From the IMG/VR virus record IMGVR_UViG_2529293044_000006, positions 1-24,435 of that record: a stretch of 24,435 nt of DNA. One strand, written 5' to 3'. This document shows, one piece after another, positions 12,601 through 15,600 of the stretch. Made by a program: the position numbers. Numbering within the stretch: the stretch's first letter is position 1; each line of letters starts with the position of its first letter. This stretch comes from a virus (Duplodnaviria; Heunggongvirae; Uroviricota; Caudoviricetes).

Positions 12601-15600
12601 CTATAACGGGCAGAAGGCGTTTGTTGACTCGATTTGCGACTTCAAAAACAAAACAAACTCCCACGTCATTCTCGTTACTCACTCGCGAAAAGGAGACAGC
12701 GAAGAAAAACCAACCGGGAAAATGGACGTAAAAGGCTCTGGAGCGATAACAGACCTGACAGACAACCTTTTCATCATCTGGCGTAACAAGGCTCGCGAGA
12801 GAGCGTTACAGAGAGTTCAGAGTGGTGAAAAGATGTCAGAGAAGGACGAACAGCTACTGGCATCTCCGGCATCTGTTTTGATGCTTGAAAAACAACGTAA
12901 CGGCGAAGGTTGGGAAGGTGGTGTCCCGTTGTTCCTTGACGAGCAATCGCACCAGTTCCTGCAACTTGAATCGGGATCGCCATATAGCTACATCGCCAAT
13001 ATGCCGAAATCGGAATATGACGAGTCGTGGCGACAGGAAAACGTGACGGAGTATTAAATGACCATCTACATCACTGAGCTAATAACAGGCCTGCTGGTAA
13101 TCGCAGGCCTTTTTATTTGGGGGAGAGGGAAGTCATGAAAAAACTAACCTTTGAAATTCGATCTCCAGCACATCAGCAGAACGCTATTCACGCAGTACAG
13201 CAAATCCTTCCAGACCCAACCAAACCAATCGTAGTAACCATTCAGGAACGCAACCGCAGCTTAGACCAGAATCGAAAGCTTTGGGCTTGCCTTGGTGACG
13301 TTTCGCGTCAGATTGAATGGCATGGTCGCTGGCTGGATGCAGAAAGCTGGAAGTGTGTGTTTACCGCAGCATTAAAGCAGCAGGACGTTGTTCCTAACCT
13401 TGCCGGGAATGGCTTTGTGGTAATAGGCCAGTCAACCAGCAGGATGCGTGTAAGCGAATTTGCGGAGCTATTAGAGCTTATACAGGCATTCGGTACAGAG
13501 CGTGGCGTTAAGTGGTCAGACGAAGCGCGACTAGCTCTCGAATGGAAAGCGCGATGGGGAGACAGGGCGGCATGAGACGACAGCGACGAAGTATCACCGA
13601 CATCATCTGCGAAAACTGCAAATACCTTCCAACGAAGCGCTCCAGAAATAAACGCAAGCCAATCCCAAAAGAATCTGACGTAAAAACCTTCAACTACACG
13701 GCTCATCTGTGGGATATCCGGTGGCTTAGAGAACGTGCGAGGAAAACAAGGTGATTGACCAAAATCGAAGTTACGAACAAGGAAGTGTCGAGCGAGCTTT
13801 AACGTGCGCTAACTGCGGTCAGAAGCTGCATGTGCTGGAAGTTCACGTGTGTGAGCGTTGTATATATGAATGCTTAAATATGGTGGAACATAATGAGAAA
13901 TATAAGCAACATAGACGAATTAAGAAATAAATTATCATATGATGATGTTTTAGGTGTACTTAGATGGAAAGTGTCTCCTTCTAATAATGCTAAGGTTGGC
14001 AGTGTTGCTGGTTACATTAGGAGTGATGGTTATAGGATGTTAACTATCGATGGTGTAATTACTTATGCTCACCACGTTATATGGATGATAAATAATGGTG
14101 AGATTCCATTAGGGTATAAAATTGATCATATAAATGGAGTAAGGTCAGATAATAGGCTATCTAATCTTCGATTGGTTACACACCAACAGAATGCACAGAA
14201 CCAAAAGAGAAAAATAACCAATTCGTCAGGAGTGACTGGAGTGTATTTCAATAAAGAGAGATGCAAGTGGATTGCGAATATATGCGTAGATGGGCGCACC
14301 AAATATCTTGGAATATTTGCTAGCATCATTGACGCTATTGCAGAAAGGAAGAGGGCAGAAAAAGAACTGGGTTTTCATGAAAACCATGGCAGACCATAAC
14401 TGCGCAGAACTGATGAGCGATCCGAATAGCTCAATGTACGAGGAAGAAGACGATGGTGATTAGCCGATACGGAAAAATAACGTTTAAACATTTTCAAGAC
14501 AATCCAACATGGGCGGCTGCGGCTGGATATGACTTTAATTATTTTGATTGTCTGTCAGTCGCATGTATTGCAACTACCAATGTTGCTAACAACATAATCG
14601 ATGAATTCTTGGATTTTCCAGACTATCAGGTCAGAGAGTTGCCTGCATTTTTTGTGAAAGTATCTGTTGCTACAGCTCTGTTATTTATTTTGTTATTCGC
14701 ATATCCATTGCTTGCCGTATTTGTTTATGTGAGATGCAAGCACTCACAAAATGAATACAGCGGAGAGCATACCGATATTACCAGCCAAAATATGCGAGTG
14801 TGGTTGAGGAGATGCCAAGAGAAATGGGGGAGAAGTCATGGCTAACCTACGCAAAGAAGCGCGCGGAAGAGAATGCCAGGTACGTATTTACGGCATATGC
14901 AATGGAAATCCTGAAACTACAGTTCTGGCACATTACCGGATGGCTGGAATTTGCGGAACGGGAATGAAACCTGACGACCTGATCGGCGCATGGGCTTGTA
15001 GTGACTGCCACGCGGAGATCGACCGACGCACAAGGATTCTCGACAACAAAGACGCCAGACTTTACCACCTCGAAGGCGTGATCAGGACGCAGGCGATACT
15101 GCTGAAGGAGGGGAAGATTAAGTCATGAACGAATATCAGTTTGTGCTTCCATACCCGCCGTCGGTGAACACCTACTGGCGAAGACGGGGAAGCCAATACT
15201 ACATCAGCGATAAAGGCCAGAAATACCGAAAAGACGTTCAGCAAATCATCCGCCAACTTTAGTTAGACATTTTCACCAAATCACGACTCCGCATCAAAGT
15301 CATCGCAGACGTTCCAGACTCCCGCCGCCGCGACCTCGACAACATCCTGAAAGGTTTACTCGACTCCCTTATCCACGCCGGATTTGCGGAAGACGACGAG
15401 CAATTCGATGACATTCGCGTAATTCGTGGTGTGAAAGTACCAGGCGGACGGCTTGGAATAAAAATCACCGAACTGGAGAACGCATGAACGCCACAATTCA
15501 AACGATACTAGAGCTTCTTATCCAGACACGAGGCAATCAGACCGAAGTGGCGAGGATGCTTTCCTGCGCAAGAGGAACAGTGCTCAAGTACAACCGAGAC

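Follow-up and report, generated by a model that had tools for sequence, protein, structure and literature searches.

Interruption of ninF

What lies between the two parts of ninF in this lambdoid E. coli prophage, and did it arrive by homing? The window, meaning the whole stretch of 24,435 nucleotides that was analysed, contains ninF over positions 13751-14463, broken after codon 37. An earlier note on this DNA proposed that about 540 bp of AT-rich DNA had directly invaded the coding sequence and left ninF split. This proposal held: ninF homology was present on both sides of a 539-bp insert, the pieces lie in three frames, and the G+C of the insert was 0.356 (35.6%) versus 0.495 upstream. Alignment of ninF from lambda and relatives placed the insertion between codons 37 and 38. 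We regard it as probable, from these and the following comparisons, that the interruption is a free-standing HNH (HNH_3)-AP2 homing endonuclease gene between these two codons of a lambdoid E. coli prophage gene. The ninF parts and the changes at their junctions are listed below.

13751..13861, plus strand: ninF N-terminal part, codons 1-37, with a GTG start at 13751 and the motifs ...CANC...CERC
13857..13861, plus strand: junction-proximal substitutions, CAC TGC to CGT TGT (13857 G, 13858 T, 13861 T)
13862..13930, plus strand: out-of-frame tail of the truncated NinF (IYECLNMVEHNEKYKQHRRIKK, then stop), from the ORF list
14377..14388, plus strand: two in-frame ATGs (14377 and 14386), read from the sequence, a possible restart for a ninF C-terminal peptide
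14401..14463, plus strand: ninF C-terminal part (CAELMSDPNSSMYEEEDDGD, then stop), from alignment to empty sites

Uninterrupted ninF is a dispensable nin-region gene of 57 codons, with a lambda-type sequence (GTGTGTGAGCACTGCTGCGCAGAA) and an HK022/HK542-type sequence (GTGTGCTCCGATTGCTGCGCAGAA). In alignment, the N part was collinear with ninF of lambda, HK542 and phiKp_30 up to codon 37 (13861; ...HVLEVHVCERC), and 106 nt of it were identical to two uninterrupted alleles (L206 and L207). The division into N and C parts had been recognized correctly in the earlier note, but its N boundary at ...HVCE was too short; because the N part reaches ...HVCERC, all four zinc-ribbon Cys are retained. Past 13861 the frame leaves ninF homology and runs to a stop at 13930, giving a 59-aa product that matches all 25 positions of the Pfam NinF model (E=6e-12). 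The out-of-frame tail of this product overlaps the endonuclease start by 38 nt and is conserved across insert-bearing alleles only because of its overlap with the cassette; it differs in an 84% identical relative described below.

Homology to ninF restarts at 14401 (TGC GCA GAA...) and continues to the stop at 14463. The residues 'HN' of 'HNCAELM', previously taken as ninF, belong instead to the endonuclease cassette, whose 3' end is here translated in the ninF frame. The frame of the C part was intact in 32/32 insert-bearing alleles, and the downstream gene takes from this segment both its Shine-Dalgarno sequence (GAGGA, 14440-14444) and its start (14453), which overlaps ninF. Neither ATG at 14377 and 14386, from which a putative C-terminal peptide (MKTMADHNCAELMS…) could be read, has a convincing Shine-Dalgarno sequence. 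One codon of the 14377-14388 stretch varies (A/V) among alleles, so the stretch is not constrained in the ninF frame.

The G at 13857 was private to insert carriers, being present in 32/32 insert-bearing versus 0/118 insert-free alleles. An insert-free allele with CGT TGT, the 'empty CERC' that precise excision would leave, was found neither in IMG/VR nor among 2,099 E. coli ninF places.

Composition and expression signals of the insert

The insert was delimited by alignment to empty sites, by composition and by the identical junctions of the copies examined, with each boundary ambiguous by a few bases. The net insertion is not a multiple of 3.

13862..14400, plus strand: insert (endonuclease cassette), 539 bp
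13857..13910, plus strand: predicted RNA hairpin enclosing the endonuclease Shine-Dalgarno sequence and ATG, from folding
13882..13887, plus strand: Shine-Dalgarno-like GGTGGA, 5 nt 5' of the endonuclease ATG, read from the sequence

The cassette consists of a 31-nt leader with the Shine-Dalgarno sequence, a 507-nt ORF and 1 nt, in agreement with the earlier description of an insert that is nearly all a 168-aa ORF (13893-14399) with its own start. The ORF begins with the ATG at 13893, downstream of GGTGGA, in a frame that differs from those of both ninF parts. A scan of the insert found no promoter-like site, so transcription of the endonuclease gene probably comes from pR, together with that of the nin region. 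The hairpin at 13857-13910 had a minimum free energy of -11.8 kcal/mol (z=-3.46; 0/200 shuffles as stable) and might tentatively be seen as a predicted translational brake; conservation of this structure over the ribosome-binding site was not supported by L160, the 84% identical relative and the only diverged one (z=+0.6). There is also a weak terminator-like hairpin at 13841-13856, a kind of match whose number was not above that in shuffles.

A target-site duplication was considered and rejected. The right-end GAC CAT AAC resembles a degenerate GAG CAC TGC at 5/9 positions, which is within chance. The family C-terminus GFHENHG(R/K) is conserved and marks the natural end of the ORF, so the right-end bases belong to the 3' end of the endonuclease gene itself, with its stop codon TAA inside CAT AAC.

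The endonuclease

The domains of the encoded protein were assigned as follows.

13893..14399, plus strand: endonuclease ORF, 168 aa, HNH_3 plus AP2-like domain, from Pfam, phrog_99, AlphaFold and Foldseek
14064..14198, plus strand: HNH_3 catalytic domain, residues 58-102 (D78-H79, N87, N91, N100), from Pfam and alignment
14226..14369, plus strand: AP2-like DNA-binding domain, residues about 112-159, from homologues and predicted structure

The first half of the HNH/AP2 label given in the earlier note was borne out by a Pfam HNH_3 (PF13392) match of 70.1 bits against a cut-off of 24.8 (E=1.2e-19), which covers profile positions 2-46 of 46, and the protein matched phrog_99 at E=3e-70. Absence of the HNH catalytic residues would have spoken against the label; D78-H79, N91 and N100 were present and aligned to D74-H75, N87 and N96 of I-HmuI, which we take to be the D-H pair, the structural Asn and the metal Asn with catalytic or metal-binding roles. 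Seven columns were invariant in an 18-member alignment (H60, D78, H79, N87, N91, N100, and N103), and all of these residues are present here. The AlphaFold model (pLDDT 87) predicted HNH strands at 75-79 and 92-96 and a helix at 97-107, that is, a modelled beta-beta-alpha-metal fold.

The AP2 half of the label was below the Pfam threshold on this protein (E=0.021, 15.5 bits vs 33.3) and was carried by homologues and predicted structure. Nine of the 18 aligned homologues matched AP2 at E<1e-3 (best 3.2e-8), AlphaFold predicted strands at 117-120, 125-132 and 135-142 followed by a helix at 145-159, and Foldseek matched AP2 domains 7et4 (rmsd 1.4 Å, 47 aligned columns), 1gcc and 3igm. These homologues and the model support a C-terminal domain that is AP2-like, with a sub-threshold sequence match.

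The top Foldseek match of the whole protein was I-HmuI, the HNH nicking enzyme of SPO1 (1u3e; E=2.7e-4, probability 1.00). The two proteins align over the beta-rich N-terminal region and the HNH motif; their sequence similarity is marginal (E=0.089). I-HmuI is borne by a group I intron and ends in a helix-turn-helix, in contrast to the free-standing gene and AP2-type end found here.

Distribution and relatives

Among 5,426 complete E. coli genomes, 45 carried the insert, at 47 places in all (about 2.3% of ~2,060-2,100 ninF copies), and a further 29 IMG/VR prophage contigs had it. When the same gene was sought elsewhere, as the earlier note had proposed, its copies always lay in ninF with identical junctions. 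Presence and absence were polymorphic at this single site, and empty-site flanks were identical except for 3 nt. The carriers include the reference EPEC strain E2348/69.

The endonuclease ORF was intact in 30/31 full copies. Its polymorphisms comprised 16 synonymous and 12 non-synonymous changes (pN/pS 0.20, binomial p=3e-5); judged by this ratio, the ORF is maintained by purifying selection. Two copies were degraded, one by a frameshift (L036) and one by an IS3-family element (L006); they are decay products of the kind that a homing cycle would predict. A pattern scan of viral contigs also found a variant with a 1-nt deletion (L039).

Identical inserts occurred in different surroundings. Haplotype h05, identical at 539/539 nt, was present in six combinations of flanking ninF haplotype and neighbouring genes, and polymorphisms common to insert-free alleles resumed at -67 and +33 of the insert. 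The insert had at least six different downstream genes and two upstream arrangements as neighbours. Genome 14EC007 holds two kinds of ninF, one with the insert and one that is insert-free and apparently susceptible.

The only diverged relative found was the 84% identical endonuclease L160, on a single 909-bp Logan contig (run SRR25288770). It occupies the same left junction (..HVCEKC/ATATATG, with the slash marking the junction) of a diverged ninF; its junctions read ...EKC/IYVLLNAG... and ...ADPN/G, with no HN-C. Both diverged lineages keep the fourth Cys codon (CERC and CEKC). No close relative was found in other species among 185,579 species-representative genomes, no homologue above 60% identity in isolated phages, and nothing new among close relatives in metagenome contigs. 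Phage homologues were detected in 3,810 phage records, the nearest in isolated phages being about 50% identical and belonging to virulent Klebsiella, Escherichia and Salmonella phages. Within E. coli, HNH-AP2 paralogues 39-49% identical to the endonuclease lie in or adjoining the nin region of the AST20 prophage, and a NUMOD4-HNH gene lies directly 3' of ninF in EJN001. Related nuclease genes are common in lambdoid prophages, and the earlier remark that such a gene is unusual inside the lambdoid nin region was overstated; the uncommon feature is insertion inside a coding sequence.

Proposed homing and its alternatives

These observations fit a ninF-specific free-standing homing endonuclease gene that is putatively active or recently active. 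Occupation of one site at ~2% frequency, an ORF that purifying selection keeps intact, and the recurrence of identical copies in many flank haplotypes support what would be selfish maintenance. In the mechanism that we propose, the endonuclease would be transcribed with the nin region from pR in lytic growth, and the enzyme would act on a second lambdoid phage, co-infecting or co-induced, whose uninterrupted ninF it would nick or cut around codons 35-38. Red, Rad52-like or Orf functions, or host RecA, would then repair the damage by recombination with an insert-bearing template and so copy the cassette in, with conversion tracts that may be short (up to about 67 nt to the left of the insert and about 33 nt to its right). 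An allele with the insert would be immune to its own endonuclease because the site is split and three junction-adjacent substitutions are present. NinF would be left as a 59-aa product that keeps the zinc ribbon and exchanges its acidic tail for a basic out-of-frame one, and the orphan C-terminal segment would serve mainly as the ribosome-binding region of the downstream gene. The split would be tolerated because the nin region is dispensable.

We infer homing from population patterns only. A fuller reading joins all of these elements: an actively homing ninF-specific element of temperate lambdoid phages that acts only during lytic co-replication, converts uninterrupted ninF including that of lambda in tracts of tens of bases, helps to create mosaic junctions around ninF, and leaves a truncated but functional NinF. 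This combination is possible, and we hold it with less than even confidence.

The strongest alternative is that the nuclease is passive or domesticated, that it entered ninF by one illegitimate insertion and spread by ordinary homologous recombination, and that it is kept for a benefit to the phage such as degrading competitors or DNA processing. Lambdoid mosaicism at short homologies is well documented (PMC2327257, PMC3945230), and since lambdoid phages recombine frequently at short conserved sequences, ordinary exchange in the ninF flanks could move one ancient insertion with no need for endonuclease activity. The exactly identical junctions of all copies are consistent with a single origin, a frequency of only ~2.3% of ninF copies suits a passive gene, and purifying selection is expected of a useful gene as well as of a homing one. 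The presence of insert-bearing and insert-free alleles in one genome also agrees with it. Repression of nin in lysogens would explain the coexistence seen in 14EC007, and an inactive element would look alike. Identical 539-nt copies are, however, joined to ninF haplotypes that differ from one another within 33-67 nt of the insert on either side, which requires repeated exchanges in very short intervals, the outcome of conversion stimulated by breaks. The protein has the architecture of known homing endonucleases, and the presence of the 84% relative at this site in a diverged ninF argues for site specificity and not for a one-off accident. We therefore consider a passive gene unlikely, and prefer a ninF-specific homing endonuclease gene.

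It is highly improbable that the gene is a dead relic, that is, an inactivated endonuclease pseudogene, as the RefSeq annotation implies. The PGAP label is 'incomplete / pseudogene' in two genomes, E2348/69 and ETEC4091, and the degraded copies L036 and L006 are what such decay looks like. Against this stand the full-length ORF, the 30/31 intact copies, the pN/pS of 0.20 and the presence of every invariant family residue; because the ORF is full length in the window, in E2348/69 and in ETEC4091, the pseudogene labels are annotation artefacts.

Slighter still is the chance of a self-splicing intron, group I or other, that carries an endonuclease ORF and whose splicing would restore the ninF mRNA. 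Removal of exactly 539 nt would restore the ninF frame, and I-HmuI-type HNH endonucleases are intron-encoded in Bacillus phages (PMC2988022). Rfam families, group I and group II introns included, nonetheless gave no match at E<=10 on either strand of 13400-14900, and the predicted fold of the whole insert was not unusually stable relative to shuffles (z=-1.29). The ORF leaves only 31 + 1 nt of the insert uncovered, and these 32 non-coding bases bear out the earlier argument that there is no room for a group I intron. The last insert base at the homology-defined boundaries is C, whereas a group I intron would be expected to end in G.

The reading as an intein, or as a 'fractured gene' whose split-intein halves would re-join NinF by protein (trans-)splicing, is effectively refuted: although C/IYEC at the N junction and ...DHN/C at the C junction superficially resemble intein ends, and fractured genes with free-standing endonuclease genes provide a precedent (PMC2677866), the three ORFs lie in three frames, the candidate pieces (<=22 aa and 37 aa) fall far below a Hint fold, the second of them overlaps the endonuclease ORF in another frame, Pfam gave no Hint or intein match in either ninF fragment, the 'HN' comes from the stop-codon region of the endonuclease gene, one position of the putative C piece varies (A/V), and the junction motifs are absent in L160. 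As judged from its sequence, the cassette is neither an intron nor an intein and is a free-standing ORF with its own start signals.

Comparison with known systems

Splitting of a coding sequence by a free-standing endonuclease gene, with no intron or intein, has precedents in mobE of Aeromonas phage Aeh1, which splits nrdA, in mobA of T4, which splits the gene 39/60 topoisomerase subunit, and in the nrdD insertion of FelixO1-like phages (PMC2988022, PMC4837284). The enzymes of mobA and mobE are of the HNH type, as here (PMC2988022, PMC4837284), and T-even phages offer a general precedent for free-standing HNH genes and gene-splitting insertions (PMC2988022). All three cases share with the ninF insert a dependence, here predicted, on transcription of the upstream host gene. 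An RNA hairpin over the ribosome-binding site has been shown for mobE, whereas here it is only predicted. The hosts of mobE, mobA and the nrdD insertion are virulent T4-like or FelixO1-like phages, in contrast to the temperate lambdoid prophage in this study. The ninF insert also differs in its AP2-like DNA-binding module and in being a low-frequency polymorphism rather than fixed. Because ninF is tiny (57 codons) and dispensable, nothing forces its halves to stay functional, unlike those of the genes in these three cases. The halves of the Aeh1 NrdA 'genes-in-pieces' work together; in ninF, the N half keeps its native start and the full zinc ribbon.

HNH-AP2 homing endonucleases occur in phages, cyanobacteria and protists (PMC10448857). 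Like the endonuclease in ninF, they have an N-terminal HNH and a C-terminal AP2 domain and often adjoin or lie inside conserved genes (PMC10448857). The 'IPA-HNH' genes of vibriophage ICP1 lack a canonical Pfam HNH_3 match (PMC10448857), in contrast to the match obtained here. The AST20 paralogues and the EJN001 NUMOD4-HNH gene share the same E. coli lambdoid prophage nin neighbourhood, and are sited between genes rather than inside one.

Implications

The ninF insert adds a clean new case to a known kind of mobile element, and its mechanism is not new; the literature searched contained no description of an endonuclease in ninF. Most work on free-standing homing endonuclease genes has concerned virulent phages (T4, T5-like phages, and ICP1), and the present locus provides a well-sampled natural case in lambdoid prophages, with a likely target in phage lambda. 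If homing is active, ninF would allow intronless homing, and mosaicism driven by endonucleases in temperate phages, to be studied experimentally with lambda. Conversion stimulated by the endonuclease may be a contributor to lambdoid mosaicism, as the population data suggest. Marker exclusion between co-infecting phages, which the earlier note had raised, is a reasonable inference by analogy with T-even phages. The pseudogene and partial entries for the endonuclease in RefSeq can be corrected; at present its treatment there is inconsistent, appearing as a pseudogene or as a partial gene between two 'NinF' proteins.

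Structure of the ninF interruption and its endonuclease

In the window, ninF starts with GTG at 13751 and is collinear through codon 37 (13861; ...CANCGQKLHVLEVHVCERC) with its counterparts in lambda, HK542 and Klebsiella phage phiKp_30. Homology picks up again at 14401 (TGC GCA GAA CTG ...; CAELMSDPNSSMYEEEDDGD) and continues to the stop at 14463. This alignment places a net insertion of 539 bp after codon 37 (13862-14400, boundaries uncertain by a few bases), and the earlier note's view that about 540 bp of AT-rich DNA split the gene was confirmed: the G+C content of the insert is 35.6% vs. 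49.5% in the upstream ninB-ninE-ninF segment. The insert length is not a multiple of three. The two closest uninterrupted ninF alleles, from E. coli strains 14EC007 and EJN001, match the window exactly across the first 106 nt of ninF; the only differences are at 13857, 13858 and 13861, with CAC TGC at the junction vs. CGT TGT in the window.

Features around the insert, in order after a primase/toprim gene (window coordinates)
13135-13575, ninB
13572-13754, ninE
13751-14463, ninF, interrupted at 13862-14400
13893-14399, endonuclease open reading frame, 168 aa
14440-14444, GAGGA, Shine-Dalgarno sequence of the downstream gene within the ninF C segment
14453-14845, 130-aa open reading frame, its ATG (14453) overlapping ninF
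14838-15128, ybcO/DUF1364

From about 9785 onward, the window is 99.4% identical to a lambdoid prophage in E. coli O127:H6 E2348/69 (NC_011601.1, ~731.7-746.2 kb), and its left part differs.

The 168-aa reading frame has its own start, as had been proposed, with GGTGGA 5 nt upstream of the ATG, and occupies the whole insert except for 31 nt at the 5' end and 1 nt at the 3' end. The protein matched Pfam HNH_3 at residues 58-102 (70.1 bits vs. a cut-off of 24.8) and PHROG 99 ("HNH endonuclease") at 3e-70. Alignment with database homologues (18 sequences) showed residues H60, D78, H79, N87, N91, L92, R93, N100, and N103 to be invariant. The catalytic residues of the HNH site are present: D78-H79, N91, and N100 line up with D74-H75, N87, and N96 of I-HmuI, an HNH homing endonuclease of solved structure used as the reference. 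The AP2 part of the original label was sub-threshold by sequence (Pfam AP2 vs. the C-terminal third, E=0.021, below the gathering score) and was backed by the homologues, nine of 18 of which had AP2 at E<1e-3, and by the predicted structure, in which residues 117-159 form a three-stranded sheet and a helix (AlphaFold model, pLDDT 87). The top PDB match by Foldseek was I-HmuI (E=2.7e-4), followed by AP2 domains of Arabidopsis TEM1, AtERF1 and a Plasmodium ApiAP2 protein; the resemblance to I-HmuI is structural, but an AP2 module is predicted where I-HmuI has a helix-turn-helix. Taken together, the HNH_3 match, the invariant residues, AP2 in homologues and the predicted fold indicate that the insert encodes an HNH-AP2 endonuclease whose active site is intact. 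Members of this family are treated as homing endonucleases (PMC10448857 and work cited there). Relatives were detected in 3,810 phage records, the nearest about 50% identical.

Distribution and maintenance of the insert

The same insert, which the earlier note had suggested seeking in other prophages, was detected at 47 places in 45 of 5,426 complete E. coli genomes, all chromosomal and annotated as "NinF (x2)" plus HNH endonuclease. Across the 5,426 genomes there are ~2,060-2,100 ninF copies (in ~1,670 of them), so about 2.3% of the copies are occupied. A further 29 insert-bearing prophage contigs were found in IMG/VR at ~99% identity, every one with the insert in ninF, and both junctions were base-for-base the same in every copy examined. 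The insert was absent from the isolated phages of the phage collection and from species-representative genomes, and metagenome contigs yielded nothing beyond E. coli-type copies. IMG/VR was sampled for 118 insert-free alleles; at the site these have VCEHCC (74), VCSDCC (39) or rarer variants, and CERC occurs in none. Only insert-bearing alleles have G at 13857, and no precise empty site with the junction substitutions turned up in IMG/VR or the E. coli genomes.

The endonuclease reading frame was intact in 30 of 31 full-length copies, the exception (L036) being frameshifted; one further copy (L006), split by an IS3-family element, was not counted. The 18 distinct alleles carry 16 synonymous and 12 non-synonymous polymorphisms (pN/pS = 0.20; binomial p = 3e-5 in a neutrality test). 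RefSeq/PGAP gives the two ninF pieces separate "protein NinF" CDSs and treats the endonuclease as an incomplete pseudogene at 3178-3327 of the E2348/69 locus (L001) and 4034-4279 of the ETEC4091 locus (L005); these labels are annotation artefacts, because the 168-codon reading frames are full length there. Codon 33 (window 13990) encodes Ala in the window vs. Val (28) or Ile (2) in the other 30 full-length copies, and is the sole difference from E2348/69 across ninF and the insert.

Possible homing and homologous recombination

The backgrounds of the insert are mosaic. At least six different genes lie downstream of insert-bearing ninF (the 130-aa reading frame, two ninG types, roi, a NUMOD4-HNH gene, and others), two ninF N-termini and upstream arrangements occur, and replication modules vary. 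One 539-nt insert haplotype (h05) was present with zero differences in six flank-haplotype/neighbor-gene combinations, and polymorphisms common to insert-free and insert-bearing alleles start at -67 on the left and +33 on the right. Recent copying of the cassette into various ninF alleles, with very short tracts of co-conversion, would be expected to leave this pattern. The main rival, frequent ordinary recombination in the conserved and short ninF flanks, could also produce it and could move the insert without endonuclease activity.

The only diverged relative of the endonuclease bears on site specificity. This 176-aa protein (P0002, 84% amino acid identity) is encoded on a 909-bp Logan contig from SRR25288770 (L160, 1-909, compared with window 13840-14463) and has the same left junction as the window, in a diverged ninF, ...IHVCEKC|ATATATG.... 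The right junction is unlike that of the window: a shortened ninF tail begins from DPNGQMLEKDDG and lacks the CAELMS codons, and ybcO, only ~74% identical to E. coli-phage ybcO genes, follows directly. The shared left junction in a diverged ninF therefore points to a long association of the endonuclease lineage with ninF, which argues for site specificity. Current or recent homing is somewhat favored.

Neither an intron nor an intein is present. The prediction that a group I intron ribozyme would have no room was borne out: 32 nt of the insert are non-coding, Rfam families gave no match at E<=10 over 13400-14900 on both strands, and the insert was no more stably folded than shuffled sequence (z=-1.29). 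The two parts of ninF and the endonuclease between them are each in a separate frame. A split intein ("fractured gene"), suggested by the junctions C|IYEC... and ...DHN|C, was rejected because the candidate pieces are too small (<=22 and <=37 aa), the second is out of frame within the endonuclease gene with one position variable among alleles, neither matches a Hint or intein Pfam model, "DHN" is the endonuclease stop region in another frame (conserved family C-terminus GFHENHG(R/K)), and both motifs are missing from L160. With the HNH site intact, these results support direct splitting of ninF by a free-standing HNH-AP2 gene. We consider the structural description of the insert nearly certain and its explanation as a free-standing HNH homing endonuclease probable.

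Inferred consequences for ninF and endonuclease expression

The truncated NinF would retain all four cysteines of its zinc ribbon and a match to the complete Pfam NinF model, and its acidic tail is replaced by a basic, out-of-frame tail of 22 aa. The fourth Cys codon, at the junction, is kept by both endonuclease lineages (CERC, CEKC). The ninF C segment has in-frame ATGs at 14377 and 14386 without a convincing ribosome-binding site, and is in frame in all 32 insert-bearing alleles; the GAGGA and ATG of the downstream gene may account for its retention.

A scan detected no promoter-like site within the insert, and the endonuclease is presumably expressed by read-through from pR in lytic growth. 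A predicted hairpin (13857-13910, z=-3.46) spans its Shine-Dalgarno sequence and ATG and recalls the hairpin that occludes the mobE ribosome-binding site in Aeh1; L160, the single diverged relative, does not share it. Strain 14EC007 carries an insert-bearing ninF (H62, 1.75 Mb) and an uninterrupted lambda-type ninF (L206 1473-1643, 3.06 Mb), the latter in a degraded prophage beside IS100 and with the same left flank as the window. The presumed target and the endonuclease gene thus coexist uncut in a lysogen, and expression limited to pR read-through would explain why the insert-free copy is unconverted.

Other endonuclease genes

The nearest precedents come from virulent phages, in which free-standing HNH genes split coding sequences, namely mobE in Aeh1 nrdA and mobA in gene 39/60 of T4, together with an endonuclease gene splitting nrdD in FelixO1-like phages (PMC2988022, PMC4837284), whereas the hosts here are temperate lambdoid prophages. 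The kind of element, a free-standing HNH homing gene splitting a host gene, is already known; the present example is well populated. Its main value is as a lambda-based system in which temperate-phage homing could be tested, and in allowing present genome annotation to be corrected. A literature search found no publication on an endonuclease in ninF.

Such genes had been called unusual inside the lambdoid nin region, which held for insertion within a coding sequence but not for their presence, since endonuclease genes in lambdoid prophages are not rare. The AST20 prophage, which bears the ninF insert, has two intergenic HNH-AP2 paralogues in its early-right/nin region (L007 2216-2827 and 6761-7273; 39% and 49% identical to the ninF endonuclease). 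The same prophage also has an intergenic GIY-YIG nuclease gene. A free-standing 169-aa NUMOD4-HNH gene begins at the ninF stop codon in several prophages, whether or not their ninF carries the insert; ninF thus appears to be a hotspot for endonuclease genes of two unrelated kinds.

Loci with the NUMOD4-HNH gene
L207 1636-2145 (EJN001), L029 ~3561, L071, L100, L117
L018 (= L170, same contig) and L192, with an internal deletion

E2348/69 has a 468-bp HNH gene between ssb and a Rad52-family recombinase gene (L205 4093-4560). In the window, ssb (348-854, -) abuts the Rad52-like gene (855-1562, -) at 854/855 without an HNH gene; this is a second site in this prophage family where the presence of an endonuclease gene is polymorphic.

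Other features of the window

The early-left region contains an IS block (2793-5561) that is not at this position in the E2348/69 prophage, with IS21-like istA/istB reading frames (2793-3815 and 3812-4336, the second apparently truncated) followed by IS3-family orfA/orfB (4390-4698 and 4695-5561). The rusA frame (15125-15487) stops early, leaving a 45-aa reading frame (15125-15262); the E2348/69 annotation gives it an "internal stop". A truncated Q-like antiterminator gene (15669-15758) ends after ~24-29 codons and is followed by AT-rich lpxR (lipid A deacylase, ~15884-16843, -) and a second, complete Q gene, both placed from the E2348/69 annotation. A strong intrinsic-terminator-like hairpin (13087-13110), its 8-bp stem containing 6 G-C pairs and followed by TTTTATTT, separates the primase/toprim gene from ninB, a position that in lambda, at the start of the nin region, is taken by the N-dependent terminator tR2.
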